Position numbers and translations under genes: made by a program. The notes under the pieces are model-generated. The model was not told the DNA's origin, did no database searches, and saw only the letters and a program-made list of their open reading frames with translations. Source: an uncultured Gammaproteobacteria bacterium (GTDB lineage Bacteria > Patescibacteriota > Microgenomatia > CAZETR01 > Amesbacteraceae). Taken from it: 64,000 bases of DNA. How positions within the stretch are numbered: the first letter of the stretch is position 1; the number at the start of each line of letters is the position of its first letter. Shown piece by piece: positions 10,287 to 64,000 of this stretch. The stretch covers positions 669,404 through 733,403 of the forward strand of contig CAZFGX010000001.1 in NCBI GenBank assembly GCA_964518565.1, given 5' to 3'.

Positions 10287-10310
10287 AATTTATGCTAACA
10301 CAACACACCT

Positions 10311-11102
10311 CTAAATCACCCAATACTTTCCGTCTCGTTCTTCAATTTGTCCCAACAATTGTAACTGCATCAATTCATAACTTAGTACATCAATTGGCTT
10401 TTCAACTAATCGACACAATTCATCAATTGTTAATGGTTCATTTTGTAACAAACTATATAAATCAGTAGATTTAATGTATCGATATTTTTTCATTTGCGGC
10501 ATCCAAAGTTTTGCCTGTCCGGTCGCAATCAAAGAATTGGTTCCCAAAGAAACAGCACTAGTAATCGGACCCGGCACAGCCCAAATTTCCTTGCCCATTT
10601 TTTTGGCAATTTCTACTGTTCCCAATGACCCAGATTTGACCCCTGCTTCGATGACATATACTCGCTGACAAAGTGCTGCCACAATTCGGTTGCGCAAAGG
10701 AAAAGTCCACAGTGCTCCTTTCTGTTTTTTCCACTCCGAAAAGATCAGTCCATCGGCTGCCAAAATAGCTCTTCCCAAATCATCGATTTGTTCATCAATT
10801 CCCCACCCCAAAACTGCAATAGTTTTTCCGCCCACGGTCAGACAAATCTCATGTGCGGTTCGATCCACTCCGTACATAAATCCGGACACAATTGTCCACC
10901 CGTCAGCGACCAACTGTGGCACCAAAATTTCCACCGCTCGTCTGCCGTATTGGGTCATCTGCCTGCTGCCAATAACTGCAGCCATTCGGGGTGGCATTTC
11001 ACCTTGCCAATTACCCAAATACCATAGCTCTTTCACAATCGGTTTCACATCTGCCAACCACCTCTCCAACACCCCCTGATCTAGTTGCCCAGCAGTTAGC
11101 AT
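10311..11102 (-). CDS. dprA: DNA processing protein DprA/Smf
   Basis: AVIGSRQMTQYGRR ... SGFMYGVDRTAH ... LGWGID is the DprA Rossmann core, with a C-terminal winged-helix tail. Confidence 0.9.
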   Translation of the reverse strand: MLTAGQLDQGVLERWLADVKPIVKELWYLGNWQGEMPPRMAAVIGSRQMTQYGRRAVEILVPQLVADGWTIVSGFMYGVDRTAHEICLTVGGKTIAVLGWGIDEQIDDLGRAILAADGLIFSEWKKQKGALWTFPLRNRIVAALCQRVYVIEAGVKSGSLGTVEIAKKMGKEIWAVPGPITSAVSLGTNSLIATGQAKLWMPQMKKYRYIKSTDLYSLLQNEPLTIDELCRLVEKPIDVLSYELMQLQLLGQIEERDGKYWVI

Positions 11103-11165
11103 ATATCAATATTAATTATATTGACTTTCTATGTGAAGTATGGGCACAATAGATACATAGTTAGA

Positions 11166-11220
11166 ACTTGTAAAAACTGGTAAAAACAGCTTCAAAAAAT
11201 TGTAAAAAGTTGTCAAAACC
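11166..11220 (+). repeat. phased array of T(T)GTAAAAA / TTGTCAAAA motifs upstream of the HTH-TM-Cache gene
   Basis: Copies start at 11168, 11178, 11200 and 11210 (about 10-11 bp phasing). The same motif, reverse-complemented, forms a longer array at 38097-38170. Confidence 0.6.
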
Positions 11221-11234
11221 AGCCCTGCCAAAAA

Positions 11235-28000: not shown

Positions 28001-29262
28001 CAGTAGACACCAACTCACCACTGGATCCCATTTCTGGCGCGGACGTAGCCGAATACTACCAAATGCCAAACGGCTATGATTCTATAAACATTGGTGACAT
28101 CGTCTCCTTGGGCTCTGAGCCAGGCAAGGCTGAAGTTGCAACAAAACCTCAAGACCGAAAAATGCTAGGTGTAGTTTCCGAAAAGCCTGGACTCACACTC
28201 GGCCAATCTGAAGGCCAAAACATGATGCCTATTGCTCTCACCGGCCGCGTACCGGTTCGTATTAGCTCTAAAAATGGCACCATTAAAATCGGCGACGCAA
28301 TCACCTCTTCAGATATACCAGGTGTAGGTATCAAGGCTACCCAACCAGGAAAAATTCTCGGAACTGCCATGGAAAACTTCGACTCAAATGACGAAGGCCG
28401 CATCATGGTAAACATCAATGTCGGATATTACCTAGGTGAAGAATCTGAACAACCCCTACTCGTCCAAAAAAATGAAATAAACATCACACCTTCTATTGAA
28501 TCTGACACATCAATGGCCACAGATAGCGCTGGATTAACAGCTGGGTCAGTCGGAGAATTTATCATTAACAAACCCTCAGTGTTCCAACAACTCTCTCAAT
28601 TCATGAATGACATAATAGTGAACGGCAAAGCGACGTTTAACAATTCAGTAGCCTTCTTGGGCAACACACTATTTAAAGGTAAAGCAACCTTTGAAAAAAC
28701 TGTAGAGTTTAATGAAGACGCCGCTGGTTATGCTGTAATCAAAGCCGGCCATCGTGCAGTGAATATTACCTATGCTACTGAGTATTCAAATAATCCATTA
28801 GTAAACACCTCTCTCGTCGTCACCAAAATTACTCCAGAAATCTACACTGATCGTGTATCTCGCGGCATCTGTAATGAGACGGCCGGCATGCAAGCCTGCC
28901 AAGACAATATGGTAAATGAGGTACTTGGAAACGATGTAAAATTTGCCATCGTCGACAGCAGTACCCAAGGATTCATGATTCTTCTCAACAAGCCAACTCA
29001 AGTAGACATGACCTTCTCATGGACAGCTACTGCAGTAACAAAAACAAAGGTAAGCACAAGTACAACCGATCCAGCTCTAGAATCAGCATTTAAAAATATC
29101 AGCGAGTCATCGTCTGACTCAGCTAGTTTAATCCAGGAGATAAACGAACAAATAGCTACAACATCAGCAATTCTAGGAAGTCAAATCAGTATAAATGACC
29201 AATTGTTAAACGAAAATTCAGCTACTTCTTCAGCCTCACCCTCAGCATCGACATCCCCATAG
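13063..29262 (+). CDS. giant (5399 aa) secreted/surface-anchored repeat protein, fibre/adhesin-like
   Basis: Single uninterrupted ORF with an N-terminal signal anchor. Thr/Ser/Gly/Asn-rich beta-type repeats and a non-repetitive C-terminal 1300 aa containing VGIGTDTPANALEV and a beta-rich terminal domain. All minus-strand ORFs in this interval are shadows. Confidence 0.85.
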   Translation: MNKRGISPIIILLVIGLATTVTFGTATLVRHYSNPFAKANLQLNLKNSPDVIDASKLAGAVLQSPVVGITQLESGKYTAFQIQDADIQNIDNTPTLSLSARLLSLSNDPISLSGPNKIDYIELKNHKTSNAKVVIPGIVQVKTKSGDIINVLLSQAKIRNGQIIDAFYGQVVDSAHLIAGVGEISGNLTYPAVEIGGQPANSGISSLVRQAMRVVPSLSLDSRPISISQTQGTVVLGATTDMLQSLNLDFSAPYDAVFDEKSGTWTLPGQSGVSISTIATDRQVAKAIEDKISSGDLVLPTATNGITEIKSANDKLTVTTNESLVTLRLSLVNSIDSDSIIDGSITNSDIYSGANIGDSKLDQIKSANKVAGSAIQLSTTGGLENNSGLSLLTSCSINQVLKWDGSDWICATQSGGGGSSIDIQENDSTITSAAAFLDFLGSDFTVTNSPSGEANVAIDYTNSAITRSNQNETISGTWTFSSTPTITNLPNSALANSGITVTAGTGLSGGGAVSLGGSVTLSSTLGTAIDSSEITNDTIVNADINSAAAIDFTKLASLTAGYILLGNSSNVVTATALSGDITIDSSGVTTIGADKVALGTDTTGNYVAGATTNGGLALTGTEAGTLGLITSCSDNQVLKYTAAGGWACANDTTGGGSGNSFETISTASGTSPVADSSTDTLSLTAGSGITIVGDASNDSIAIAATLGNTIDSSEITNDTIVNADINSAAAIDFSKLGALTAGNILLGNSSNVATSTAMSGDITIDSSGVTTIGADKVALATDTTGNYVATVTGNSQISVSGSGSENAGVSLSIAADSIGDSQLAFNTGQNLTTSSTPTFSALTLNGNLTLANAETLSNGTDGQITFGRNDAGTVTLTAADNDSTAALTILPGGAAGLTLGGSSTTAITITTDGTGDSEVVLPANSVGNSELVNSSITINSAGILSGGASVSLGGNITLTATEADTLNTVAGRGASTATALTLSSTSNAITAGTLTINGDTFTDLTGTGLTISGGALQTTLGTAIDSSEITDDTITASDLAATLTFADGDLLDLSNINNSSTSEGLKLPQATACTSATANGQICWDNDTFVLYVGNGTTASSISNPFGVSIDSSEITNDSIVNADINSSAAIDFSKLATLTAGNVLLGNSSNVATSTALSGDVTVDSSGVTTIGADKVALATDTTGNYVATVTGNSQISVSGSGSENAGVSLSIAADSIGDSQLAFNTGQNLTTASSPSFASQTLSNTTNQLVLGTTNTTTISSTAPSTSRTYTIPDFGSNDSFVGLAATQTLTNKTISGSSNTLSNIGNSSLTNSSITINTSGILTGGASVSLGGNITLTATEADTLATVTGRGASTSTTLSLAAFTASDTFTQTYTPAGTVASPRGVILTPTFGIDATDQTLAALYINPNTNSNSDSGDSLNGINIAAITASSANETAILIGSAGGGSTGWNNILAVNSSVIINGSGVLQSAALSGTYSNALTLSSTSNAITAGTVTVNSDAITDFTGTGLQMNSGSLETTLGTDITNSEINASAAIDFSKLATLTAGNVLLGNASNIATSTTLSGDITVDNSGVTTIGADKVALGTDTTGNYVSSATTNKGLTLSGTEGGSLGLQNCADNEILKYSTGTSTWSCASDATGGTINSFETITTTSGTSPVADSSTDTLTLTAGTGITVTGDSSTDTITLAATLGTAIDSSEITNDTIVNADINSAAAIDFSKLAALTAGNILLGNGSNVATSTTLSGDITIDSSGVTTIGANTVALATDTTGNYVATITGNSQISVSGSGSENAGVSLSIAADSIGDSQLAFDTGQNLTSTSTPTFGALTLNGSLTLANSETIANSTNSQFTFGRNDAGTVTLTAADNDATAALSILPGGAAALTLGGSSTTAVTLTTDNTGDAEVVLPANSIGNSELVNSSITINSAGILTGGASVSLGGNITLTATEADTLDAVAGRGASTSTALTLSSTSNAITAGTLTISGDAFTDLTGTGLTISGGALQTTLGTAIDSSEITDNTITASDLNATLTFADSDLLDLSSINNSSASEGLLLPQATACTSATANGQICWDNDTFVLYVGNGTTATSISNPFGASIDSSEITNDTIVNADINSAAAIDFSKLATLTAGNVLLGNASNIATSTTLSGDVTVDSSGVTTIGADKVALTTDTTGNYVASVTNGNGITGGNGGSEGAALTLAVDQTYAFTWTGLQTHTNTITDDGSQSIFNLTLGNDANTDTVSAIKVAATSAATGDADTIYGLDIANLASANATVAEQAIHIGSGWDNIFDINGTLISATEIGLLDGLSGTILTSGNYSSTLDSVYVNVGESPAAGDITGSFSGGLTIGSDSVALATDTTGNYVATVTGNSQISVSGSGSENAGVSLSVAADSIGDSQLAFDTGQNLTSTSTPTFGSLTLNGSLTLANSETIANSTNSQFTFGRNDAGTVTLTAADNDATAALSILPGGAAAFTLGGASTTAITLTTDSTGDSEVVLPANSIGNSELVNSSITINSAGILTGGASVSLGGNITLTATEADTLNSVAGRGASTATALTLSSTSNAITAGTLTINSDAFTDLTGTGLTISGGALQTTLGTAIDSSEITDDTITASDLNATLTFADGDLIDLSSINNSSTTEGLKLPQATACTSATANGQICWDNDTFVLYVGNGTTATSISNPFGASIDSSEITNDTIVNADINSAAAIDFSKLAALSSGNILVGSVGNVATSVAMSGDVTIDNAGATTIGADKVALTTDTTGNYVASVTNGTGITGGNGGSEGAALTLAVDQSTAFTWTGLQTHTNTITDDGSQSTFNLTLGNDANTDTISAIKVAATSAATGDIDTVYGLDIANLASANGTVLEQAIHIGTGWDNIFDLNGTLISATELGLLDGLSGTLLTSANYTSTLDSVYVNVGESPAAGDIAGSFSGGLTVGADSVALATDTTGNYVATITGDSQVSVSGSGSENAGVSISIAANSIADAQLAFNTGQHLTTTSTPTFGSLTLNGSLTLANSETIANGTDGQILFSRNDAGTVTINAADNDANADLVIRAGGTGALTFGNASNTSITLTTDSTGDAEVVLPASSVGNSELVNSSITINSSGILTGGASVSLGGNITLTATEADTLNSVAGRGASTATALTLSSTSNAITAGTITVNADAITDFTGTGITISGGALQTTLGTAIDSSEITDNTITASDLNATLTFADSDLIDLSAINNSSTTEGLLLPQATACTSATANGQICWDNDSFTLSIGNGTTTTSIGNPFGASIDSSEITNDTIVNADINSAAAIDFSKLAALSSGNILVGSVGNVATSVTMSGDITIDNTGATTIGADKVALTTDTTGNYVTSVTNGTGITGGNGGSEGAALTLAVDQTTAFTWTGLQTHTNTITDDGSQSIFNLTLGNDANTDTISAIKVAATSATTGDADTVYGLDIANLSSADGTVAENAIHIGTGWDNVFDLNGTLISSSELTLLDGVSGTLVTTTTNPTSADISGSFSAGFTVAANAVALATDTTGNYVATVAGDSQISVSGSGSENAGVSLSIAADSIGDSQLAFNTGQNLTTTSTPTFGSLTLNGSLTLANSETIANGTDGQILFSRNDAGTVTINAADDNANADLVVRAGGTGALTLGNSSNTAITLTTDSTGDGEIVLPANSIGNSELVNSAITINSAGILSGGASVSLGGNVTLTATEADTLNTVAGRGASTATALTLSSTSNAITAGTITVNSDGITDFTGTGLQMNSGSLEATLGTSIVSGEITDDTITASDLNATLTFADSDMIDLSSINGSSTTEGLKLPQNTSCASSTANGQICWDNDGFVLYIGNGTTTTAITGGGGNSFETITTTSGSSPVADSSTDTLTLTAGTGMTVTGDSSTDTITLATTLGTAIDSSEITNDSIVNADINSAAAIDFSKLATLSSGNILVGSVGNVATSVAMSGDVTIDNTGATTIGADKVALTTDTTGNYVQSITNGTGISGGNGGGEGSALTLAVDQTTAFTWTGLQTHTNTITDDGAQSTYNLTLGNDANTDTVSGVAINVTSTATGDADTLYGLNIANITAQAVVTETAINIGTGWEQAINAGGTLISLSELQLIDGGIALSELTDSGTLTAGTVDINGGAIDGVTIGGSSAGAGTFTTLTATGDVTMNDAGADNILIGAAADTLTLTSNSLSLTDDNWSISTSGALTTSGAINANGGITTSTSNTALAFTVNGSGDFTFTADSDSQVQISLDDSSTNTGLELLRLTRTTSSTAADSIGGYISFYIENDTSTAEAARILANLRDANVATTVGTDITMYVARDGSTGELIDGMTVYVDAANKWVCGNANKLGNDGYDCFGFQIGTSNIINFSFDGSNRFNVDYSSGSTQLALYSVNSGDDLLVKTLGDQAISFDQNNDGNNMVIDTDGQVGIGTDTPANALEVLSTTTPQFRVSYDTSNYTTFAVSSTGVLTIDYTGTAGGITLADFTGGGSGCSALETNSSGVLACGTDDTGGSSTMQGVYDNDVNGSDVTIAMNTTDGSIIFTEAAGTNHQITTTAAPTLDQLALTNTGFGTTTDGVDGLSIVFEQADDADATDTNAGLNVSVSGASGDLGDILSGISINTTAQTANNREIGLTIGTGFDEDIRFASASAIIRMQDGGTLSFMDGSYGQGATKDQPNARVIEYFSTANYGVFEAGGFVNIDGSYYQDNFSIPMTAVTADVTSRTNRFGDHGNWSFDEAGTGGGSTATNSTKYGCTLSQGGSGAGAGTNTSFGRLEFSPDLGTHTHTAADSACVAHLGIGTGTNTAGVLNAAYKYVQYFKVGFSSGFTNNNSANQAFVGAHNYTEAWGQNWSSIAATHGFIGFANLISTTTATDAQGGTQWNGFARVGNAISSVACGTTGNISTASNAWALMRIEARATNDVHFFIDSDVSNGIALTECGAGVSSNISTRNLNPAMNVVHQQNLSSAGNSWTMYVDLYAHVQDDPKPENGPIAFSDTVDTNSPLDPISGADVAEYYQMPNGYDSINIGDIVSLGSEPGKAEVATKPQDRKMLGVVSEKPGLTLGQSEGQNMMPIALTGRVPVRISSKNGTIKIGDAITSSDIPGVGIKATQPGKILGTAMENFDSNDEGRIMVNINVGYYLGEESEQPLLVQKNEINITPSIESDTSMATDSAGLTAGSVGEFIINKPSVFQQLSQFMNDIIVNGKATFNNSVAFLGNTLFKGKATFEKTVEFNEDAAGYAVIKAGHRAVNITYATEYSNNPLVNTSLVVTKITPEIYTDRVSRGICNETAGMQACQDNMVNEVLGNDVKFAIVDSSTQGFMILLNKPTQVDMTFSWTATAVTKTKVSTSTTDPALESAFKNISESSSDSASLIQEINEQIATTSAILGSQISINDQLLNENSATSSASPSASTSP
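14600..25200 (+). repeat. intragenic tandem repeats of about 1.2-1.8 kb (6-7 units, roughly 85-90% nt identity)
   Basis: The motif coding for IDSSEITNDTIVNADINSAAAIDF recurs near 14641, 15181, 16381, 18141, 19341, 21111, 22861 and 24731. TGTTGGGACAACGAC recurs at 16311, 19271, 21031, 22791 and 24521. Confidence 0.8.
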
Positions 29263-41226: not shown

Positions 41227-42006
41227 TTGATAAAAATGGTAAATGTTTTGTTATTTATCAGTATCGTTCTTATCTCTGTAACCTTGCACGAAATTGGTCA
41301 CTATATCTTCGCAAAACTATTTAATGTGTTTACAAACGAATTTGGCATCGGCGGACCTCCGTTTGGTCCTAAAAAGGTTTTATTCAAAATTGATGGAATG
41401 CCAGTTGTTCTACGCCCAATTCCTATAATGGGCTATGTGAAAGTTGCCACCGAAAAGGAAGACGTACCTTCAAATATGAAAAACAAGTTTGCCCTAGAAG
41501 AAATTTCAAAAATCAAGCAAATATTTTTCCTACTCTCAGGCGTAATTATGAACTATATCCTAGCAGTATTTGCATTTATTCTAGCTGCTATAGAAAAATT
41601 TAATGGTCATTTACTTGAGTTGTTCCTTCGAGCCATATCCGCACCAGTTCTTGGTATGGGTTTTATGTTTCAGTTGTTTTTTGGGACATTAAAGAATGCT
41701 TCATTCACTGACTTTTCAAATGTAAACGCGCTCGATATTGTGTCTCAAAAACCTACCATTGTTGGTAGTGATATTTGGGTATATGTATTTTTAATCAACC
41801 TGAGTTTAATTTTCTTCAATCTATGCTTACCAATTTTTGGGGTAACTGATGGTGGAAAAATCATTTTGATAGTTATAGAAAAAATCTTTGGCAAGCATGG
41901 ACCGTTTATCAAACAAATTTTAACCGCAACCGGAGTATTTGTGTTCTTATTATTTGTTTTGGTCAGCTGTGGCGCTGATGCTTTTCATCTAATAACACGC
42001 AAATAA
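41227..42006 (+). CDS. M50-family (site-2 protease-like) membrane zinc metalloprotease
   Basis: HEIGHY in the first TM helix (HExxH), polytopic, no PDZ domain. SD AAAGGAG lies upstream. Confidence 0.65.
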   Translation: MIKMVNVLLFISIVLISVTLHEIGHYIFAKLFNVFTNEFGIGGPPFGPKKVLFKIDGMPVVLRPIPIMGYVKVATEKEDVPSNMKNKFALEEISKIKQIFFLLSGVIMNYILAVFAFILAAIEKFNGHLLELFLRAISAPVLGMGFMFQLFFGTLKNASFTDFSNVNALDIVSQKPTIVGSDIWVYVFLINLSLIFFNLCLPIFGVTDGGKIILIVIEKIFGKHGPFIKQILTATGVFVFLLFVLVSCGADAFHLITRK

Positions 42007-53377: not shown

Positions 53378-54160
<783 letters not shown>

Positions 54161-54189: not shown

Positions 54190-54350
54190 AACCAATGTCC
54201 AAGTTTTTTTCCCGAAAATTTTGAGGCTAAAAATTTTTTTTAAGTCAAAATTGAACAGATCTTGTATCCAAAAATGATCGACATAAAAAAATGAATACTC
54301 TAGGATATTTACCCTGCAAAAAATGTCCAAGATTTTTTCCGAAAAAAATA
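54190..54350. repeat. pair of direct repeats AATGTCCAAG-T7-CCGAAAA(A), 128 bp apart, in the divergent intergenic region
   Basis: Copies at 54194-54222 and 54322-54347. Each contains the near-palindrome T(n)CC(C)GA(n). Confidence 0.55.
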
Positions 54351-54458
54351 ATGTTTTTTTGACCTATTTATTTTGGAGAAATTAGCTTCATTTGTCCAAA
54401 AATTTTACTGACAGAATTGTAAAAGATTTTTTGACTGATCAAAAATAAAAACTACATA

Positions 54459-54488
54459 TTGACACAGGAGTCAAAATTACCGTAATCT
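54459..54488 (+). promoter_or_regulatory. candidate promoter for giant gene 2 (TTGACA-18-TAATCT)
   Basis: Consensus -35 TTGACA at 54459-54464. A -10-like TAATCT lies at 54483-54488. Confidence 0.35.
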
Positions 54489-54526
54489 AAAGTTAGACAT
54501 ACTTATACATTTCGATTCTGCCAAAA

Positions 54527-57500
54527 ATGCCCAACTCAATTTCAGATTTAAATGCAAATTCCCGCTTAACTATTCAAGAAGCGGCAAAAATTCTCAAAGT
54601 CTCCACAAAGACTCTTCGTCGTTGGGAAGCCCAAGGCTTGATCGTTCCAGAAAGAACACCAGGCAACCAAAGACGCTACAACAAATATCAATTAGAAAAT
54701 ATTGGCAAATCCCCTATTTTAGTCAAAGCACCAGTCATAAATCCCGAACCAGAAATTGATTCCATCATCGAAGAAAAAAATAACGAAGAAGTTGTTCATC
54801 AAATTCCCGCATCTATACCCACCACACCAAAACGTTCATTGTCCAAGTTCCCCTTTATTGCCACTGCAGCCATAGCTGTATTCATAGGTCTCATTGCAGC
54901 TAGTAAATCATTTAGTGCGGAAAAACTTACCCAAATTCTCCCTAAATTCACTGCCTCAAAATCTGAACCCACTATCAAAGCAATCGCCCAAGACGTCAAA
55001 AATATTCAACAAGGCACAGTTCTTGCAGAACAAACATCCGCGCTAAATGACTATATATTCTCAGTCAATGTTCCAGCTAAATTTGCCCAAGATGCGACCA
55101 TCTCAGGCAAGTTGACTGCTCCTAATGTCGTTTACAATATAAATGCAGGCACAGGTATCACCCTTTCTGGCGATCCACAAACCCCCACCATCTCAGCAAA
55201 CACCTCCGCCTTAGATTTCTTTAATAGTATCAAGGTCTCTGGTCAATCAGATGTAGTGGCCAATACCAACAACGATAGTTTTACCTTAGTCGGCGGATCC
55301 AATGTTTCTATTACTACAGATGCCACAAATAAAAAAATTACTATCACTTCAACTGATACTCAAGGTCTTACAGGCACAATTGAAGTTGGTAATGGTGGAA
55401 CTGGTCTCACTTCTTACACCACTGGAGACATTTTATATGCCTCAGCCGACGATACTCTTAGCGCTTTACCCATCGGCAGTGCCAATCAAGTGCTTACAGT
55501 CTCCGGTGGCATTCCTTCATGGACCACTTCATCCTCCAGCTGTGTTGGTGGCTGTGTTGGCCTGAATCCTTCTGCCACTCAGACTATCACTCCCGGATCT
55601 AGCACTGTCACTGGCTTAGTAGTAGCCCAAGCCTCTAGTGGCTCAGTGGATGTCTTCTCTGTTACCAACAATGCTGGCTCCACCAAATATCTATATGTAG
55701 ATTCTACTGGCAGTTTAAACGTAAATTCGCAAATAAGCTTTCCCGGTGCTGGCAGTGTCAAGTCTACTTCGACAAGTAGCCTCACTTTAGACTCTGGAAC
55801 CACCGGAGATGTGAACCTGGGTACTGGAAACAATCCCAAAACCGTCAACATCGCCACTGGTACTGGTGGAGACATTACAAATATCTCCACAGACAACACC
55901 ACCGCCGACACTATAAACATTGGCTCCTCTTTAGATACCACAACCATCCTCGGTACCACACTTATTCGTGGTGCAACTACTATCAACGACACTGGATCCA
56001 CAGCTACAAACATCGGTACAGGCTCTTCGACTGGCACCATCACTCTCGGTCGAACAACTGGTACAGACCTAGTCTTAAACGATTCAAACTGGAACATTTC
56101 CGGAGCTGGTGCAGCCAATTTTGCCACTATCGGCGCCACCACTCGCGGTACCGGCGCCTTCACTACACTTGGTGCGAATTCCACAGTCACCTTCTCTGGA
56201 CTATCATCTGGATCTGGAACAAATCTATGTCTAGATGGTAGCAACAACGTTGTTACTTGTAGCGGTGCTACTGGTATCACTGGAAGTGGCACCACAAACC
56301 GGCTCGCCAAATTCACATCTGCCTCAGTCATCGGTGACGCTATTCTTTCAGACGATGGCACTACCGTTTCTTGGACTTCCACAGCCACCACCGCAGATGC
56401 TCTTGATATCACAGCTTCATCACTCACCACAGGTAAATTGGCCAATTTCACAGGTACTTCTACTCCAGCTACAAATACAGCTACAAGTCAAAATCTGTTT
56501 GATGTCACCTACGCTCAAAGCAGCTTGGCCAACACTGCCGGCTTTGCTGGTATCAGCCTAAACTTTACCAACAATCCTACAGTTGCTGGCAATACCGAAT
56601 ATGCGATGCGAATTCAAAATCAAATCACTACAAACACTACTGACAACGCCGTCGCCGCTTTGCTCTTACTAGACAACGCTGACACTGCTGGCACTGGATC
56701 CACTGTAGTGACAGACGCCCTACGCATTACAAATTCCGGAGCTATCGGTAGCGGTATTACCAACGGTATTACATTTGGCTCTACCTCTATTGCTACCGGA
56801 TTAAACTTCTCCTCCACGCCTACTACAAATTACGTTTCAGGCACAAATTGGAGTATTACCGCAGCTGGTGCGCAAACTCTAGCCTCCTCACTCCAAGCCA
56901 CAGCTGGTACCTTTACTACGGGAAATGTCGCCATCACTGCCGGAGCTCTCACTTTAAATGGCACTACCCGCATCGCCAATTCAGGTGTAGCCACTTTGGC
57001 CGCCAACTCCACTATCGGTACTCAAACTTTTAGTGCCAATAGCATTACCGACTCCGGATCGCTAACCATCAACTCAACTAGTAATAATGCCCTGACATTG
57101 GACTCCGGTACTACTGGTACCGTAAATATCGGTACAGGCAGTGCCGGCAAAACTATCAACATCGCTACCGACAATTCAAACGCCGATACTATTAATATTG
57201 GCTCAGGCTTAGACACATTAACACTTCTTGGCACCACCAATATCAACACCACCGGCACCGCGACCACTACTCTTGGCGCCACTAGCAACACAAATCTAGT
57301 TCTCAACGACGCAGATTGGAACATTTCCGGCGCAGGAGCTGCAAACTTCGCCAGTATCGGCGCCACCACCCGCGGCACTGGAGCATTTACTACCCTTGGT
57401 GCTAATTCTACCGTCACATTCTCCGGCCTATCAGGCGGCAACGGTACAGCCTTATGTCTAGATGGTTCCAACAATGTAGTTACCTGTACAGCCGGTAACG

Positions 57501-60500
57501 GTGCCATCACCGGTTCAGGTACCACCAACCAACTAGCCAAATTCACAGCTACAGGCATCATCGGCGATAGTAGTATCTCAGACAACGGCACTACTGTGAC
57601 CATCGCTGCAGGTAAAAACCTCAGTCTAGCCGACGGGGTTGGTACATTTGCACAAACCTTCTCTCCTCTAGGAACAACTGCCACTGCTAACGGCCTTACA
57701 ATTACTCCCAAATTTACTCTGGATGCTACAGATCAAACCTTATCTTCAATATATGTAAACGCCAACAGCAACTCAAACAACGATTCCGGCGATACTCTTT
57801 ATGGCATAAACTTGGACAACATCACTTCCTCTTCAGCCTCAGAAACAGCCATAAAAGTCGGCACTGGTTGGGACAATATTATTTCATCCGCAAACTTTAC
57901 AGTTACGCAGTCTGGTGGAGTGACTGCTACTAGTGCTAGCCTCACTGGAACAGTCGACATCAACACTTCTGGATCAGCCACCACCACCATCGGCGCTGCA
58001 TCTGGCACGAACCTAGTCTTGGCCGATGCCGATTGGAATATCGCCGGCAACGGTACGGCAAACTTTGCCAGTATCGGCGCCACCACCCGCGGCACCGGCG
58101 CCTTCACCACCCTAGCCGCCAACTCTACAGTCACCTTTTCAGGTCTCTCATCTGGTACTGGCACTTCACTTTGTGTAGACGGTTCAAACAACGTCGTCAC
58201 TTGTACTGCTACTTCTAGTCAATGGCAAACAAACAGCAATGTGGTCAATCTGGTCACTTCTACTGACAATGTCACTGTCGGTTCAGCCACAAATCTGGGC
58301 AAACTCGCTGTCGATGGCGACACAGATGAAGTCCAATTGCTTATCCAAGGCAATGGCACTCAGACTTCAAATCTAGCCGTCTTCGAACAAAGCGATGGCA
58401 CAGACGCCTTCTCTATCACCAACGCTGGAAATGTTACAGTTGCTGGCACAATTACAGCCGGTTCAGGTGGTCAAGTAATCACCACTTCAGCAGGTAAAAT
58501 TGATGCAGACGCAATTGGCCTTATTTCCTCTGATGGTACTGGTGGCACTAGCTCTGGATCTGGCCTAGAAGTAGATACAGATCGACTAGGTCTATTACAA
58601 GGTTGTAGTGATGGCCAAGTTCTCAAGTGGAACGATTCAAATACCAATTGGGAATGTGCCAACGACACTGGCGCCACCTCAGCTGTCGTAAACATTCAAA
58701 ATAATGATGTAGCCGTTGGCACTAGTGTAGACACTATCGATTTCTCAACTGATTTCTCAGTCACAGCCTCACCTTCAAACGAAGCCAATATCGCCATCGA
58801 TTACTCTGCTTCAGGTATTACTCGCAAAGCTCAGGCCGAGAGTATCACTGGTGGCTGGACATTTGGTACAGGCAGCACCACCTTCAATTCCCTTTCTACC
58901 TTCAACACCGACGTAGATCTGACTTTTGCTGGTACAGAAAATCTTAGCCTTACCTCAGATCTAGCCGGCACTGTAAATCTCGCCTCCATAGTAGGTACAC
59001 CTTCTTCTACTTCAGGTACCACTCGCGGTCTATTTATCCAACAAGCCAACAGTGCCAATACAAACGGGTTAGATACAGCCATCGCTATAGACAATGCTGA
59101 TGCAGATCTAGCTCTCACCACAGCTATTAGTATCGCCAATTCTGGGGGTGGTGGCTACACCACTATTCTAGATACCACTTCCCTCGACATCTCCGGCACT
59201 GGTGCTATTACAGGTGCCACTGGTATCACCTCCTCAGGCACAATCAACTTCTCTGGTCTAACGGCCAGCAAAGTCGTCTTTACTGATGGTTCAAAAAATC
59301 TGACCTCTTCAGGCACAGTCGGTGTCGATCAAGGTGGTACTGGTGCCGGTACATTTACAACCAACGGCGTTCTCTATGGCAACGGTACTTCAGCCATTGG
59401 CGTAACCGCCGCAGGCACAAATGGTCAATTATTATTAGGCGTCACTTCCAGCGCTCCAGCCTTTGGCACTATGAGCGGCGATGCTACCATAAACAATACC
59501 GGCACACTCACCATAGCCGCGGATGCAGTAGCTCTCGGCACAGACACTACTGGAAATTACGTCGCCACAATTACCGCTGGAAATGGTATTTCCGGTTCAG
59601 TCTCTTCTGAAGGATCCACTCCCACTATTGCTCTATCAGCACTAACTGGAGACTGGGATCAAACCGGTGCTTTCGATATACTTCTAGATAATGCTAGCTC
59701 AGAATTAAAGATTTTAGAATCTTCGGGTGCCACCTATTTTGGCATCATTGATGTCGGTGACCTATCCGCAGATCGTACGTATACTTTCCCAGATGCCACC
59801 GGCACTGTGTGTTTAACTTCTGGAAACTGTTCTGGTGTCGGCGGCAGTGTCAGCACTGCGGGTGGCAGCACTAATCAACTGGCCAAATTCACTGGCGCCT
59901 CCTCTATTGGCGACTCAAATATTTCCGATGACGGCACTACAGTTACCATTGCTGCTGGCAAAAATTTAGCTCTAGCCGACGGAGTTGGCACATTTGCTCA
60001 AACTTTCTCCCCCTTAGGTACCACTTCTAATGCCAATGGTCTGACTGTCACTCCTAAATTTACTCTGAATGCTACTGACCAAACTCTATCAGCCATCTAC
60101 ATAAATCCCGACACAAATTCAAACAACGACACCGGTGACACGCTCTACGGCTTAAACATCGACAACATTACTGGATCTTCTGCAAATGAATTTGCCCTCA
60201 GACTTGGATCTGGTTATGACGCTCCCATCTATTTCGAACTCGGCTCAAATGATCTCAAACTCACCGCCACTGCCCCATCTGGTGCAACTCGTGCAGTAAA
60301 CATTCCTGCAGTTTCGGCTGACGATGAATTTTGTATCCGCACACTTGGAAATTGTTTTGGTGGCGGTGGTGGTGGTATCACTGGATCCGGTTCGGCCAAC
60401 CAAGTCGCCTATTGGTCTTCTAGTTCTGCAATCGCTGGAAATGCTGGTTACACCTTTGATCCTTCCGCCACTACCGGAAATACTCTTGCGCTTTCAAACA

Positions 60501-63500
60501 CCGGTCTAACTACCGGAAAGCTGACCTCATTCACTGGGACTTCTACTCCAGCAGCCAACACCGCTACTACTCAAAATCTATTCGATATTACATTTGCCCA
60601 ATCTACTGCCGCCAATACCAATGGCTTTACAGGTCTGGGAGTAAATTTCACCAACAACCCATCTATTTCTGGAAACACCGAATACGCAGCACGCATCCAA
60701 AACCAAGTTACTACAAACACCACTGACAATGCCGTCGCCGCTTTATTACTTTTAGACAACGCTGACACCAATGGTACTGGTTCCACCGTAGTTACCGATG
60801 CGTTAAGAATTACCAATTCTGGTGCCATCACTGCCGGCGTCACCAACGGTATCACCTTTGGTTCCACCACTATCGGAACTGGCTTAAACTTCTCTTCTAC
60901 ACCAGCTACTAACTATGTCTCTGGTACAAATTGGAGCATCACTGCCGCTGGTGCCGAAACACTCGCCTCTTCACTTCAAGCTACAGCTGGTACTTTCACT
61001 ACAGGTGACGTCGCCATCACTTCTGGCGCCCTCACTTTAAATGGCTCAACCCGAATCTCAAATGCTGGTGTCGGCTCATTCATCACCGGCACCACTATCG
61101 GTTCTCAAACATTCACGACCAACAACATTGCCGATTCAGGTGCTTTGACTATCAAATCTGCCACATCAAATGCCATTACTCTAGATTCCGGCACCACTGG
61201 TACTGTCAATATCGGTACCGGCTCATCCGGCAAAACTATTAATATCGGCACTGACAACACCAATGCAGACACCATCAACTTGGGTTCAATTGCTGACACC
61301 ACTGCTATTTCCGGAACCATCAACATTGGCACTGGCTCAAACACTGGCACCATCACCCTCGGTCGCACTGCTAGCACAGATTTAGTCTTAAACGATGCTG
61401 ATTGGAATATTTCTGGAGCTGGTGCGGCAAATCTAGCCAGTATCGGTGCCACCACTCGCGGTACTGGTGCATTTACCACGCTGGCTGCCAATTCCACAGT
61501 CACTCTTTCTGGCATATCCTCTGGTTCCGGCAGTGCTCTATGTCTAGATGTTTCAAACAACGTAGTTACTTGTTCCTCAGGATCCTCCGTCTCCGGTTCT
61601 GGTGCCGCAAACCGAGTTGCTTATTGGTCAGGCGCCAGCTCACTTACTAGTAGTGCCAACTTTACTATCGATCCTTCAGCTACCACCGGCAACACTCTGG
61701 CTCTTACAAACACTGGTCTTACCACAGGCAAACTCTTAAACCTCACTTCCACCACCAATTCAGCCGCAAACACTGCCTGGGCTGCCAATCAATTCAATGT
61801 CACCAACGCTCAAGGTACTACTGCTGTCTCCACCGGTTCAATCGCCGGAGTCGATGTTCAATTCACCCAAGGCACATCAGTTTCTGGCAACAACGAAACC
61901 GCCCTTCGAGTCAATGCAGCTCAAAACGATTCTTCCACCACAGATGCCACCATTGCTTCACTTATCGATGTCGCCAACAATGATACGTCCACTGGCAATC
62001 AAATCACCGTTACTGATGGCTTGAAAATTACTGGCTCAAACATCACCAACGGTATAAATCTATCTGGCACATTCGGCACAAATCTCATCACTTCTTCAAA
62101 CTTTAGTGTTTCCCAAGCCGGTGCCATCACTGCAGCAACTTCTAGCAACACCATCAATGGATTGATAATTAATTCTGGTGCTCTTTCCGGCATCACTGGC
62201 TACACCCAAACCTCAGGAAACTTTGCCATGTCTGGCACAGGCAGCTTTGGCACAGGTACTGGCGCCATCTCTCTCAATGGTGATACTACTATTGCTGCCG
62301 ACAAAAACTTCGTCATGACTTCTGGTACTGGCAACTTCACTGAAACTTTTGCCCCAGCTGGCACTTCTGCTACTGCCCGAGCCATGATCTTGACTCCCAC
62401 ATTTGGCATCGACGCTACAGATCAAACTCTCGCGGGTCTATACATTAATCCAAATACAAACAGCAACAGTGATTCTGGTGACGCGCTTAACGGTATAAAT
62501 ATCGCCGCGATTACCGCTTCATCGGCAAACGAAAGCGCGATCCTTATTGGTTCAGCTGGTGGTGGATCATTGGGCTGGAACAATATTTTAGTCTCAAATA
62601 GTACAGTCCTTATCAATGGTTCAGGTATCGTCCAGTCATCTGCCATCTCTGGTAGTTACACCGGTATCACCGGCACCGGTGCCTTAGATGCCGGCTCCAT
62701 CACTTCAAACTTTGGTGCCATAGATACAGGTGCCGACAACATCACCACGACTGGTACAGTCTTTGCCAACAACTTTGATCGCTCCACTTCTGGCGCCCTC
62801 ACCTTTGGCAACACCAATGCCACCTCAGTTTCTATTTGTAACTCAGCGGCATGTGACACCATCGATATCGGCACCAACACCGACGCAGATACTATTACTC
62901 TTGGTGACACAAACGACACCCTCTCTATCGCCTCCACTGGTCTAAACGTCTCTTCTGGTGGCGCACTCACTGGAGTGGCATCAATTGATACTATTGCCAC
63001 CTCAGCTACAGCATTAACATTTGCCGGTGCTGGCACAATTTCTTCAACAACCACTAGTGCTCTGACACTAGATACTGGCTCAACTGGTACATTAAATCTC
63101 GGCACAGGCAACAACGCCAAAACTATTAATCTCGGCACAGGCAATGCTGGTGACACTATCAATATCGGTACAAACAACACAGTTGCCGATACAATCAACA
63201 TTGCCTCAGCATTAGACACCACCACAGTAGCTGGAGCTGTTAAATTAACCAATCTTTCATCTGGCACAGGCAATGCTATTTGTCTGGATGGCACAAATGC
63301 ACTAGTTACTTGTACTGTTGGTTCCGGCGGCGTATCCGGCTCTGGTTCTGCCAACCAAATCACCTACTTCAGTGGCACCTCTGCCGTCACTGGGAATGCC
63401 AACTTCACTATCAACCCCGGCTCTACCACTGGCAACACCCTTGCACTGGCCAACACATCTCTGACTACAGGTTCACTGGCAAACTTCTCCGCCACTTCCA

Positions 63501-64000
63501 CACCCACCGGCGCCGCATCTACTTCAAATGGTATAACATTAGATCTTACTGAATCAGCTGGTACCAATGCCACGACATATACAGGCTTAAATCTTAAATT
63601 CACCAGCACTCCAACTGTAGCTGGTAACACCGAATACGTCGCCCAAATCCAAAACCAAGCCACCACCAATACTACCGACAATTCAGTAAATGCACTTCTT
63701 TTACTGGACAACGCTGACACAAATTCTACTGGCTCAACCGTAGTCGCAGACGCACTCCGCATTACCAATTCTGGTGCTATCTCTGGCGGTATCACCAATG
63801 GCATCACTTTTGGCTCAGCCACCATTAGTAATGGTATTAATTTCAGCAGTGATCCGGCTTCCAAATACATCAACTCCACCAACTTCAATGTCACCACAGC
63901 TGGCGCCATGACACTCGCCTCTTCACTTCAAGCCACAGCTGGTACTTTCACTACAGGTGACGTCGCCATCACATCTGGCGCCCTAACCCTAAACGGCTCC
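54527..64000 (+). CDS. second giant repeat surface protein (over 3158 aa, continues past window end) with N-terminal MerR/excisionase-type HTH and a single TM helix
   Basis: Frame checked open from 54527 to 64000. LTIQEAAKILKVSTKTLRRWEAQGLIVPERTPGNQRRYNKYQLENI is the HTH. FPFIATAAIAVFIGLIAASKSF is the TM helix. Large Thr/Ser/Gly/Asn repeats follow, sharing segments with giant gene 1. Confidence 0.8.
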   Translation, partial: MPNSISDLNANSRLTIQEAAKILKVSTKTLRRWEAQGLIVPERTPGNQRRYNKYQLENIGKSPILVKAPVINPEPEIDSIIEEKNNEEVVHQIPASIPTTPKRSLSKFPFIATAAIAVFIGLIAASKSFSAEKLTQILPKFTASKSEPTIKAIAQDVKNIQQGTVLAEQTSALNDYIFSVNVPAKFAQDATISGKLTAPNVVYNINAGTGITLSGDPQTPTISANTSALDFFNSIKVSGQSDVVANTNNDSFTLVGGSNVSITTDATNKKITITSTDTQGLTGTIEVGNGGTGLTSYTTGDILYASADDTLSALPIGSANQVLTVSGGIPSWTTSSSSCVGGCVGLNPSATQTITPGSSTVTGLVVAQASSGSVDVFSVTNNAGSTKYLYVDSTGSLNVNSQISFPGAGSVKSTSTSSLTLDSGTTGDVNLGTGNNPKTVNIATGTGGDITNISTDNTTADTINIGSSLDTTTILGTTLIRGATTINDTGSTATNIGTGSSTGTITLGRTTGTDLVLNDSNWNISGAGAANFATIGATTRGTGAFTTLGANSTVTFSGLSSGSGTNLCLDGSNNVVTCSGATGITGSGTTNRLAKFTSASVIGDAILSDDGTTVSWTSTATTADALDITASSLTTGKLANFTGTSTPATNTATSQNLFDVTYAQSSLANTAGFAGISLNFTNNPTVAGNTEYAMRIQNQITTNTTDNAVAALLLLDNADTAGTGSTVVTDALRITNSGAIGSGITNGITFGSTSIATGLNFSSTPTTNYVSGTNWSITAAGAQTLASSLQATAGTFTTGNVAITAGALTLNGTTRIANSGVATLAANSTIGTQTFSANSITDSGSLTINSTSNNALTLDSGTTGTVNIGTGSAGKTINIATDNSNADTINIGSGLDTLTLLGTTNINTTGTATTTLGATSNTNLVLNDADWNISGAGAANFASIGATTRGTGAFTTLGANSTVTFSGLSGGNGTALCLDGSNNVVTCTAGNGAITGSGTTNQLAKFTATGIIGDSSISDNGTTVTIAAGKNLSLADGVGTFAQTFSPLGTTATANGLTITPKFTLDATDQTLSSIYVNANSNSNNDSGDTLYGINLDNITSSSASETAIKVGTGWDNIISSANFTVTQSGGVTATSASLTGTVDINTSGSATTTIGAASGTNLVLADADWNIAGNGTANFASIGATTRGTGAFTTLAANSTVTFSGLSSGTGTSLCVDGSNNVVTCTATSSQWQTNSNVVNLVTSTDNVTVGSATNLGKLAVDGDTDEVQLLIQGNGTQTSNLAVFEQSDGTDAFSITNAGNVTVAGTITAGSGGQVITTSAGKIDADAIGLISSDGTGGTSSGSGLEVDTDRLGLLQGCSDGQVLKWNDSNTNWECANDTGATSAVVNIQNNDVAVGTSVDTIDFSTDFSVTASPSNEANIAIDYSASGITRKAQAESITGGWTFGTGSTTFNSLSTFNTDVDLTFAGTENLSLTSDLAGTVNLASIVGTPSSTSGTTRGLFIQQANSANTNGLDTAIAIDNADADLALTTAISIANSGGGGYTTILDTTSLDISGTGAITGATGITSSGTINFSGLTASKVVFTDGSKNLTSSGTVGVDQGGTGAGTFTTNGVLYGNGTSAIGVTAAGTNGQLLLGVTSSAPAFGTMSGDATINNTGTLTIAADAVALGTDTTGNYVATITAGNGISGSVSSEGSTPTIALSALTGDWDQTGAFDILLDNASSELKILESSGATYFGIIDVGDLSADRTYTFPDATGTVCLTSGNCSGVGGSVSTAGGSTNQLAKFTGASSIGDSNISDDGTTVTIAAGKNLALADGVGTFAQTFSPLGTTSNANGLTVTPKFTLNATDQTLSAIYINPDTNSNNDTGDTLYGLNIDNITGSSANEFALRLGSGYDAPIYFELGSNDLKLTATAPSGATRAVNIPAVSADDEFCIRTLGNCFGGGGGGITGSGSANQVAYWSSSSAIAGNAGYTFDPSATTGNTLALSNTGLTTGKLTSFTGTSTPAANTATTQNLFDITFAQSTAANTNGFTGLGVNFTNNPSISGNTEYAARIQNQVTTNTTDNAVAALLLLDNADTNGTGSTVVTDALRITNSGAITAGVTNGITFGSTTIGTGLNFSSTPATNYVSGTNWSITAAGAETLASSLQATAGTFTTGDVAITSGALTLNGSTRISNAGVGSFITGTTIGSQTFTTNNIADSGALTIKSATSNAITLDSGTTGTVNIGTGSSGKTINIGTDNTNADTINLGSIADTTAISGTINIGTGSNTGTITLGRTASTDLVLNDADWNISGAGAANLASIGATTRGTGAFTTLAANSTVTLSGISSGSGSALCLDVSNNVVTCSSGSSVSGSGAANRVAYWSGASSLTSSANFTIDPSATTGNTLALTNTGLTTGKLLNLTSTTNSAANTAWAANQFNVTNAQGTTAVSTGSIAGVDVQFTQGTSVSGNNETALRVNAAQNDSSTTDATIASLIDVANNDTSTGNQITVTDGLKITGSNITNGINLSGTFGTNLITSSNFSVSQAGAITAATSSNTINGLIINSGALSGITGYTQTSGNFAMSGTGSFGTGTGAISLNGDTTIAADKNFVMTSGTGNFTETFAPAGTSATARAMILTPTFGIDATDQTLAGLYINPNTNSNSDSGDALNGINIAAITASSANESAILIGSAGGGSLGWNNILVSNSTVLINGSGIVQSSAISGSYTGITGTGALDAGSITSNFGAIDTGADNITTTGTVFANNFDRSTSGALTFGNTNATSVSICNSAACDTIDIGTNTDADTITLGDTNDTLSIASTGLNVSSGGALTGVASIDTIATSATALTFAGAGTISSTTTSALTLDTGSTGTLNLGTGNNAKTINLGTGNAGDTINIGTNNTVADTINIASALDTTTVAGAVKLTNLSSGTGNAICLDGTNALVTCTVGSGGVSGSGSANQITYFSGTSAVTGNANFTINPGSTTGNTLALANTSLTTGSLANFSATSTPTGAASTSNGITLDLTESAGTNATTYTGLNLKFTSTPTVAGNTEYVAQIQNQATTNTTDNSVNALLLLDNADTNSTGSTVVADALRITNSGAISGGITNGITFGSATISNGINFSSDPASKYINSTNFNVTTAGAMTLASSLQATAGTFTTGDVAITSGALTLNGS

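Follow-up and report, generated by a model that had tools for sequence, protein, structure and literature searches.

Transmembrane transcription regulators such as ToxR, TcpP, and CadC consist of an N-terminal cytoplasmic DNA-binding domain, a flexible linker, a single transmembrane (TM) helix, and an extracytoplasmic domain, and the available excerpt of the survey by Demey et al. (2023, PMC10269533) describes them as acting on DNA from the membrane without release. The same layout was recognized in a giant open reading frame (ORF) on the forward strand, at positions 54527–64000 of a 64,000-nt stretch (hereafter the window) of contig CAZFGX010000001.1, whose source is a Microgenomates bacterium, a member of the CPR (candidate phyla radiation)/Patescibacteria with ultra-small cells. 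Where ToxR and CadC have an OmpR-type winged helix and periplasmic sensors of 100–300 aa, the giant protein has a MerR/BldC-type helix-turn-helix (HTH) domain and a presumed fiber of ~4,900 aa; no match to Trans_reg_C (OmpR/PhoB-type) was found in the giant with Pfam. With a DNA-binding domain and at least one TM segment in one polypeptide, it formally counts among the transmembrane transcription regulators, which are a broad class. Regulation from the membrane is a candidate function, suggested by arrays of a 9-bp motif at its own promoter. Neither MerR-type nor patescibacterial examples are mentioned in the excerpt of the survey (PMC10269533).

The best structural match is BldC from Streptomyces (6AMA/6AMK), a MerR-like winged HTH that lacks a coiled coil and an effector domain, as the giant does. 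BldC was shown experimentally to bind 9-bp direct repeats in a head-to-tail manner, with Lys26 and Arg30 contacting bases and His46 inserting into the groove (PMC5859096). These repeats agree with the 9-bp motif and its 10-nt phasing described below, and the base-contacting Lys and Arg are conserved: K28, R32, and Q/H48 of the family align with Lys26, Arg30, and His46 of BldC, if a 3-residue tag offset is assumed in the PDB chain. The minimal winged-HTH fold without a dimerization helix, characteristic of the BldC type, was found with Foldseek. Unlike the giant, BldC is a soluble protein of 68 aa; the sequence identity is ~31%, and the NCBIfam BldC model NF033787 gave 35.8 bits against a cut-off of 77, which places the giant outside the BldC family profile. 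The BldC motif sequence differs from the family motif, while the BldC site at whiI, TGTCCGAATT, is reminiscent of it. The 9-bp repeats near the giant gene are candidate sites for cooperative head-to-tail binding.

The nearest HTH outside the family is the N-terminal domain of the IS607 transposase TnpA, and in three complete elements the same 9-mers are found ~40–60 nt upstream of tnpA in forward orientation and as a tandem pair at the far end. The giant differs from IS607 in having no resolvase domain (no match to Resolvase PF00239 in the giant protein with Pfam) and no TnpB, and in being a stable syntenic chromosomal gene beside the ATP synthase operon. Classical MerR regulators bind a palindromic operator within the 19–20 bp spacer between the −35 and −10 elements, whereas the family copies are mostly downstream of −10 and often direct. 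The coiled coil and C-terminal effector domain of classical MerR proteins are also absent: only the HTH part of the MerR profiles, 38–45 residues, aligns in Pfam, and the structure predicted with AlphaFold2 (AF2) is disordered from the end of helix 53–61 up to the TM helix at aa 111–128. Because of the missing coiled coil and effector domain, and because the candidate operator lies outside the promoter spacer, the giant is placed outside the classical MerR regulators.

RsgI-type anti-sigma factors, related to intramembrane proteolysis via SEAL domains (PMC10556640), are likewise single-pass proteins with the N-terminus inside, whose cytoplasmic end controls transcription and whose large outside part meets the environment. 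The cytoplasmic part of RsgI binds a sigma factor, not DNA; for the giant, neither a SEAL or autoproteolytic juxtamembrane domain nor a linked protease was found. Giant surface proteins from CPR and Omnitrophota (West-Roberts et al. 2023, 10.1101/2023.11.21.568195), as well as phage tail fibers and tailspikes, are also repetitive, N-terminally anchored, and several thousand residues long. The preprint on giant genes (10.1101/2023.11.21.568195) does not mention an HTH or DNA-binding N-terminus. The giant itself has no recognizable tail-fiber, tailspike, or intramolecular-chaperone domain in Pfam, PHROGs, or PDB sequence searches, while its relatives have such matches. No description of an HTH-TM-giant fiber family was found in the open-access literature, in keeping with an earlier sequence-only reading of the window, which had called the architecture no textbook family.

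Most CPR/Patescibacteria are epibionts that have not been cultured, and hardly anything is known about how they attach or regulate their genes. The family described here is widespread in Microgenomates, and would join a very large surface fiber to DNA through one polypeptide. With it, the membrane-bound one-component regulators would come to include giant adhesin-like proteins, and it offers a concrete 9-bp candidate DNA target that is testable in vitro with a 70-residue peptide. It also suggests an evolutionary route, the possible recruitment of a transposase DNA-binding domain together with the end of a transposon, and offers a way into the question of how tiny cells afford a gene of ~15 kb, which corresponds to ~1.5% of the genome.

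The Giant ORF and Its N-Terminal Domains

From the ATG at 54527, the ORF on the forward strand is translated without a stop codon to 64000 (3,158 codons) and continues past the end of the window. A HMMER search against 1.84 billion representative proteins retrieved the full protein, P0044, from an NCBI record of a 1,001,365-bp contig. P0044 is 5,023 aa long, and its aa 1–3158 are identical to the window ORF, which contains the first 3,158 of the 5,023 codons. Upstream of the ORF, there is an in-frame stop codon at 54494, and ATG 54527 is the first start codon after that stop. The later in-frame starts in the window ORF are only two TTG codons, at codon 38 within the HTH and at codon 105. The N-terminal HTH, the single TM helix, and the more than 3000 aa of repeats described by the sequence-only reading are all present, in a protein larger than could be seen from the window.

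The HTH occupies aa 11–61 (54557–54709, forward strand) and is of the kind found in BldC and in the DNA-binding domain of IS607 TnpA. Residues 15–51 match three Pfam profiles, MerR (PF00376; E-value 1.2e-15, 57.4 bits against a cut-off of 28.2), MerR_1 (PF13411; E-value 4.8e-12, 46.2 bits against a cut-off of 21.6), and HTH_17 (E-value 1e-9), all above the Pfam thresholds, and the HTH assignment of the sequence-only reading is thereby confirmed. AF2 was run on aa 1–300 with 29 homologs. It predicted a confident winged HTH for aa 11–61, with a predicted local distance difference test (pLDDT) score of 90–96, in the order strand, helix 16–23, helix 27–36, hairpin 42–52, and helix 53–61 (beta-alpha-alpha-beta-beta-alpha). 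Foldseek against PDB placed the BldC-DNA complexes 6ama and 6amk at the top (target-normalized TM-score 0.76–0.82, root-mean-square deviation 1.6–2.9 Å), followed by CarH, RacA, mycobacteriophage Xis, GlnR, SoxR, and other MerR-type DNA-binding domains. Sequence matches in PDB were BrlR (8e-7) and BldC (1e-3), and NCBIfam gave sub-threshold matches to the models of HspR, BldC, excisionase, and IS607 transposase. As modeled, the domain is a minimal MerR-type winged HTH of the BldC/excisionase kind.

The HTH is not preceded by a signal peptide. It is followed by a Pro/Glu-rich cytoplasmic linker at aa 62–106 (54710–54844, forward strand), predicted to be without secondary structure (pLDDT 53–60); the disorder in the AF2 model extends over aa 62–110. 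The linker is ~45 residues long here and 9–136 aa across the family (median 50). The single TM helix at ~aa 107–128 (54845–54910, forward strand) is the sole Kyte-Doolittle window above 1.6 in all 5,023 aa, without any second hydrophobic segment along P0044, and corresponds to the AF2 helix 111–128; its sequence includes Pro and Gly. An N-in topology is suggested by the architecture itself rather than by a dedicated predictor. The protein has 26 Cys residues in total, all after the TM helix, in 13 pairs with the members 4–17 residues apart, and in composition this large part resembles a secreted fiber.

Distribution of the Family in Microgenomates

Relatives were collected by scanning one genome per GTDB species, and 226 were confirmed by tblastn. 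Locus-level figures refer to the best 80 of these 226 relatives, with 82 genes used for counts on the HTH and the motif and 83 loci for counts on the neighborhood; the DNA scanned was 20 kb per relative and 64 kb of the source genome. A word-indexed search with aa 1–300 also retrieved proteins that share the HTH, the linker, the TM helix, and the module at the base of the ectodomain at 30–40% identity.

Approximately 78 of the best 80 loci have an in-frame HTH at ~aa 16–50, one TM helix located within aa 74–207, and a long ORF. At least ~78 species-level Microgenomates genomes thus encode HTH-TM-long fiber genes, and the fusion, which the sequence-only reading had proposed to look for in other genomes, is not a one-off. 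Since ~78 of 80 related loci share these features, the giant is not an artifact of assembly or of start-codon choice, and since the architecture is conserved across genomes, it is functional. The ORF runs off the contig or locus end in 65 loci, reaching more than 3,660 aa, and the complete ones are 720–3,420 aa long. Taxon titles of the best 80 loci include Amesbacteria, Levybacteria, Woesebacteria, Shapirobacteria, and Patescibacteria. Many third-party annotation records of metagenome-assembled genomes among them are titled "uncultured Gammaproteobacteria", which we take to be placeholder titles. Where members are named by the source, they are labeled "MerR family regulator, partial" or "excisionase family DNA binding protein", and most are unnamed. 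These labels are explained by the family genes breaking assemblies within their repeats, so that the full architecture is rarely visible. One relative (L001) is a syntenic ortholog, in which NDK, M16 peptidase, ArgRS, and the ATP synthase operon are followed by the divergent HTH gene; this HTH gene continues to the contig end after a frameshift.

The HTH is the most conserved part of the family, with a mean pairwise identity of 68% among 82 members against ~30–40% overall, and without the positions that the search pattern itself fixes, the value is still 61%. Residues S26, T29, L30, R31, R32, W33, R43, G46, R49, R50, and Y51 are invariant. Nearly all database proteins with the HTH subtype of this family have a downstream TM segment.

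A 9-bp Motif at the Family Promoters

A cis-motif of 9 bp, A(C/G)TT(G/A)GACA, was found upstream of the HTH-fiber genes. In the 250 nt upstream of the 82 genes, k-mer enrichment detected ACTTGGACA / TGTCCAAGT in 43 regions, against 0.3 expected. Allowing at most one mismatch, there are 161 motif matches in the 300-nt upstream regions (6.4/kb) and 296 in the other 1.08 Mb (0.27/kb); the latter density is approximately at chance level, and the upstream enrichment is ~23-fold. The core TT(G/A)GACA is present between −200 and +20 in 71 of the 82 family genes, with two or more copies in 58 and three or more in 28. The corresponding numbers for 573 control ORFs from the same loci are 38, 8 (several of which are the divergent neighbor), and 2.

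The arrangement of the copies is also characteristic. In the usual layout, cTTGACA-N17–19 and a −10 element are followed by forward copies that begin a few nt later. In the 27 upstream regions with an exact match to a sigma-70-type promoter, 54 cores are downstream of the −10 element and 17 are upstream. Successive forward copies are spaced by 10 nt in 30 cases, with minor peaks at 12, 21–22, and 32 nt, and some loci contain 4–6 copies. Inverted pairs are separated by 10–13 nt in 30 of 37 cases. Many loci have tandem direct copies only, one to six at a 10-nt phase. The covariation of TTGGACA versus TTAGACA with HTH residues was also considered and was uninformative, since single loci contain both variants and the recognition helix does not vary.

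In the window, a forward copy, AGTTAGACA (54491–54499, forward strand), is located just downstream of promoter-like hexamers, which are either TTGACA at 54459–54464 (by eye) or TTGACT-18-CATATT at 54431–54460 (by scan). The start-codon element CTGCCAAAAATGCCCAACT (54520–54536, forward strand) contains CTGCC and TGCCCAACT; the latter (54528–54536) overlaps the ATG and is one mismatch from the common inverted variant TGTCCAACT. Further upstream, a 24-nt direct repeat is present in two copies on the forward strand 128 nt apart, ATGTCCAAGTTTTTTTCCCGAAAA (54195–54218), which includes a reverse-orientation motif at 54196 and adjoins the divergent promoter, and ATGTCCAAGATTTTTTCCGAAAAA (54323–54346), with a motif copy at 54324. 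The 24-nt repeat has these two matches and no other in the window, and none was found in 100 shuffles. The motif scan detected another copy, TGTCCAAAA, at 54393–54401 (forward strand).

A perfect copy, TGTCCAAGT, is also present inside the ORF (54839–54848, forward strand), where it overlaps the in-frame TTG codon 105 directly before the TM segment. Translation from this TTG would yield a signal-anchored fiber without the HTH (MSKFPFIATAAI...). In three relatives (L013, L032, and L053), motif clusters are likewise found inside the linker-coding region, and over the family ORFs as a whole, motif enrichment inside the ORFs is not significant.

Several other elements were observed near these promoters. 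CTGCC is found within 150 nt upstream of the HTH codons in 68 of the 82 family genes, against 0.15 expected. In these 68 genes, CTGCC(C) is located at the start codon or a few nt from it (54520–54524 in the window; L004–L083 among the relatives), at a fixed distance of −60 to −51 nt from the STKTLRRW codons in 46 of them, and it does not resemble a Shine-Dalgarno sequence. In two relatives (L037, ~6576–6597; L057, ~1738–1772), small clusters of the motif core are found just upstream of the gene for the gamma subunit of ATP synthase, and may be due to chance or represent a further target.

Relationship to IS607 Elements

The closest HTH outside the family belongs to IS607-type serine transposases with a MerR HTH, with P0028 being 49% identical. 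The recognition helices are STKTLRRW or SSKTLRRW. IS1535, an IS607-family element, encodes a TnpA that was shown experimentally to nucleate on four helically phased 9-bp direct repeats (PMC6188088). As both IS607 TnpA and BldC bind phased 9-bp repeats, the syntax of the family promoters is the syntax read by this clade of HTHs.

Metagenome contigs were scanned for the tandem form of the motif, ASTTRGACAAASTTRGACA, and at least 120 stretches were obtained. A 19-mer of such degeneracy would be expected to have about a hundred chance matches in ~10^12 bases, the collection size being a rough estimate, and most of the listed stretches are probably chance matches or transposon ends. The scan did not serve to define a regulon, with only 4 family genes among the matches listed, and revealed the connection to IS607 instead. 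Among the matches listed, there are three complete IS607-type elements (L093, L098, and L156), in which a TnpA with a MerR HTH and Resolvase PF00239 is followed by TnpB, as identified with Pfam. Each of the three carries one forward motif copy 42–62 nt upstream of tnpA and an inverted tandem pair just past tnpB. Also among the matches listed are six further stretches in which the tandem motif abuts the 3′ end of TnpB. The motif is therefore associated with the HTH of IS607 elements as well as with that of the fiber genes.

Two conserved contexts around the tandem AGTTGGACAAAGTTGGACA recurred in the scan, among L087, L090, L096, L097, and L154 and among L088, L091, L094, L162, and L189. One context reads ...ctaaaaa-motif-tttttagg...ttgcaactagagtcctggttgagcagtcccaaccg, and the other accgttcattgt-motif-c(a/g)ggagtc...cccag(g/a)aacggcactggg. 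They are probably the right ends of IS607/TnpB elements with the guide-RNA region.

A bolder proposal, rather doubtful at present, is that the HTH and the promoter-proximal array are a domesticated IS607 left end and transposase DNA-binding domain fused to a fiber gene. The nascent HTH would then bind its own promoter in cis during translation and stay there, tethered at the membrane, until the fiber is finished or mechanically loaded. If so, the cell would gate the synthesis of the 5,023-aa fiber molecule by molecule, or tie it to fiber tension or host contact, and the protein would be a transcription factor with a micrometer-scale surface filament as its sensor domain.

Proposed Autoregulation and Alternative Explanations

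The function considered somewhat better than an even bet is that of a membrane-anchored autoregulator, whose cytoplasmic HTH would bind the 9-bp repeats at its own promoter, probably as an autorepressor of a very costly gene. On its flexible tether, the HTH would bind A(C/G)TT(G/A)GACA repeats at the promoter of the gene that encodes it. The putative operator in the relatives consists of repeat arrays in helical phase, which come after the −10 element and before the start codon, and the operator candidates in the window are a single forward copy past the promoter, an inverted copy, degenerate, that overlaps the ATG, and three upstream copies. The sign of regulation is presumed from the position of the sites: as they lie between −10 and the start codon, the bound HTH would most likely repress its own gene. 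Transcription of the 15-kb gene may in this way respond to how much fiber is in the membrane, or to its state, and the divergent promoter of the ATP synthase operon may be co-regulated via the common intergenic region. In a very small cell, the DNA could be reached from the membrane, and proteolytic release would not be needed. Signaling by the ectodomain, or ectodomain-dependent modulation of DNA binding, is possible.

Several points weigh against autoregulation by the tethered HTH. Eleven of the 82 family genes have no core motif between −200 and +20, some of them probably due to mis-assigned start codons. The recognition helix does not covary with the motif variants. The arrangement of copies at the promoter in the window is weaker than in most relatives: there is a single forward copy, the inverted copy 28 nt from it is degenerate, and the other three copies are upstream. 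The positive-inside bias around the TM helix is weak, 3 versus 3 here and 2.9 versus 1.9 in the family mean. The HTH of the giant is the presumed binder of the motif, but the true binder could be a soluble paralog elsewhere in the ~1-Mb genome; no soluble HTH paralog was found within the 64-kb window. A regulon wider than the 20 kb scanned per relative and the 64 kb of the source genome is possible. Occupancy of the arrays by a membrane-tethered HTH, perhaps in threes if the fiber is trimeric, is an assumption of the model.

The simplest alternative would be an artifact, in which a misassembly or sequencing error fuses separate HTH and fiber genes, or in which TTG codon 105 is the true start of an ordinary signal-anchored fiber. 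A product starting there, MSKFPFIATAAI..., has a plausible signal anchor, a motif copy overlaps this very TTG, and one relative (L002/L003) has an in-frame TAA between the base module and the remainder of the protein. Nevertheless, the stretch from the HTH to the TM helix is free of stop codons here and in ~78 independent genomes, an identical 5,023-aa protein is called in the NCBI record (1.0-Mb contig), and two independent SRA assemblies carry the same sequence, the giant gene ending at the contig edge in both. TTG codon 105 as the sole start is judged unlikely because the HTH is conserved in frame. An artifact is extremely improbable. Another explanation, which is rather unlikely, leaves the HTH intact but unconnected to the 9-bp elements; these would be an RNA leader, sites of another factor, or relics of IS607 ends, and the HTH would serve in protein-protein interaction or in slowing export. 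Forward and inverted copies could pair as a 7–9 bp hairpin in the 5′ untranslated region, the additional CTGCC element sits at the start codon, and the motif also occurs at IS607 ends. Against such a leader, the variable positions of the putative stem do not covary, and shuffles show at least as much pairing; seven A-C mismatches occur at the stem center, the many loci with direct copies only cannot form the hairpin, and Rfam gave no match. With the negative covariation test and nothing relevant in Rfam, an RNA leader was rejected as the main explanation of the motif. The invariance of the DNA-contact residues of the HTH also argues against this explanation.

The sequence-only reading had proposed a contact-sensing device, in which the HTH is released by regulated intramembrane proteolysis. 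The part of this proposal that stands is the fusion of an HTH via one TM helix to giant extracytoplasmic repeats, while release by an M50 protease found no specific support. In its full form, engagement or shearing of the fiber would trigger a site-1 cleavage, after which an M50 site-2 protease would free the HTH to regulate distant genes. An M50 gene is indeed present at 41227–42006 (PF02163, E-value 7e-24), the architecture formally resembles receptors of the RsgI, RseA, or Notch type, the TM helix contains Pro and Gly, and some relatives have autoproteolytic tail-spike-type domains (Peptidase_G2 IMC in L072). That bacterial intramembrane proteolysis can be force-dependent is indicated by SEAL-domain anti-sigma factors (PMC10556640). 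However, M50 proteases are near-universal, and the gene in the window is 12.5 kb away in a housekeeping setting between rplL and mreB. A tblastn search of the 83 loci with its product found no homolog at a distance of up to 10 kb from the family gene. No site-1 or autoproteolytic juxtamembrane domain was recognized with Pfam, the AF2 model having low confidence in that region. The only motif clusters found sit at the gene's own promoter region, which a tethered HTH could reach in a very small cell. Release by proteolysis is therefore quite unlikely. A structural or co-translational role of the HTH, which is unlikely as well, lies closer to autoregulation: the HTH would act like RacA and tether the chromosome or its own locus to the membrane at the fiber base, or it would bind its own promoter in cis while still nascent, during synthesis and insertion of the giant chain, allowing one fiber at a time. 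The best fold matches include the chromosome anchor RacA. The arrays are within ~100 nt of the HTH codons, so the nascent HTH would emerge beside them, and translation of the gene takes minutes. The promoter region is common to a conserved divergent membrane-protein gene. Such a role is purely inferential, and it overlaps with the autoregulation model to a degree that sequence analysis cannot separate the two.

The in-frame TAA of L002 and L003 (positions 10001–15897; JGI 3300072654 and 3300072976) is a single one, at codon 259 within a frame of more than 1,965 codons. Homology to the family runs on across the TAA, which is identical in the two samples. It could reflect a pseudogene, a split gene, or readthrough. 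An upstream gene of this relative encodes a 1,368-aa protein with a weak Peptidase_S74 match.

The Ectodomain

The extracytoplasmic part (54911–64000 in the window, forward strand) consists of a base module followed by repetitive shaft modules. Family alignments define the conserved base module at ~aa 160–300, VLA..F.VNVP..F...LTAPN.Y...AG.GI...Q.PTIS; this first module of the ectodomain was predicted with low confidence by AF2. Thr, Gly, Ser, Ala, and Asn account for 64% of the ectodomain. A super-repeat of ~400 aa is found at aa 600–1000, 1964–2361, 2368–2727, and 2949 onward, with 34–89% identity. No known domain was detected in aa 130–5023 in Pfam, PHROGs, NCBIfam, or PDB sequence searches. 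In a database search, the 401-aa shaft module matched just 8 proteins, all of them hypothetical, and an AF2 model of this module, built from the internal repeats and the 8 matches, was unusable (pLDDT 53, no secondary structure).

Some complete relatives match Peptidase_G2 IMC (including L072), End_tail_spike, K1-lyase_C, or FG-GAP in Pfam. P0044 and complete relatives share a C-terminal domain ending with ...F(D/S)WW(I/V)(V/I). No C-terminal TM segment was found among the complete relatives, and an LPxT[GAS]-type match was seen only in L027, at residue 334 of 1,809, which is not near the C-terminus. The ~4,900 aa outside the cell would form a repetitive, disulfide-looped, tail-fiber-like surface fiber. 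We infer the tail-fiber-like nature, as this label rests on the relatives and the composition. Over ~3,000 aa, the ectodomain is 25% identical to another giant ORF in the window (13063–29262, 5,399 aa).

Genomic Neighborhood

The locus is chromosomal and lies among housekeeping genes, including the ATP synthase operon, ArgRS, M16 peptidase, NDK, MreB, ribosomal proteins L1/L10/L12, DprA, and ComM. The divergent neighbor of the giant gene (53378–54157, reverse strand) is the first gene of the ATP synthase operon and encodes a protein of 259 aa. A homolog is found divergently upstream of the family gene in 71 of the 83 loci. It comprises a signal peptide, ~170 aa of ectodomain, and a hairpin of two helices at the C-terminus, and it has no match in Pfam or NCBIfam. 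The hairpin weakly resembles ATP synthase subunit c (PDB, E-values 0.025 and 0.095), and its second helix lacks an acidic residue. Canonical genes for subunits a and c were not seen in this ATP synthase operon. The ectodomain of the 259-aa protein is 37% identical (E-value 3e-13) to the GDYLTTSSEPGKAQKATK-motif domain of the giant, located ~370–450 residues before the C-terminus.

The other giant ORF (13063–29262, forward strand) has an N-terminal signal anchor and neither the family HTH type nor the 9-bp motif. Its start is overlapped by 8 nt by the end of a gene at 11235–13070 (forward strand), which encodes a second membrane HTH protein of 611 aa with HTH_17, ~5–6 hydrophobic segments, and dCache_1. 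Tandem repeats of 10 nt, TTGTAAAAAC, TGGTAAAAAC, TTGTAAAAAG, and TTGTCAAAAC, are found at 11160–11234 between the promoter and the start codon of the 11235 gene. Given this overlap and these repeats, each of the two giant fiber genes in the window is physically coupled to an HTH that is anchored in the membrane and has tandem repeats close to the promoter. The 11235 gene and the HTH-fiber gene at 54527 share the start context CTGCCAAAAA-ATGCCCAA. Directly upstream of this HTH_17-dCache/giant pair, and divergent from it, a ComM/YifB-type Mg-chelatase-like ATPase and DprA are encoded at 8769–11102 (reverse strand). ComM and DprA are associated with natural transformation.

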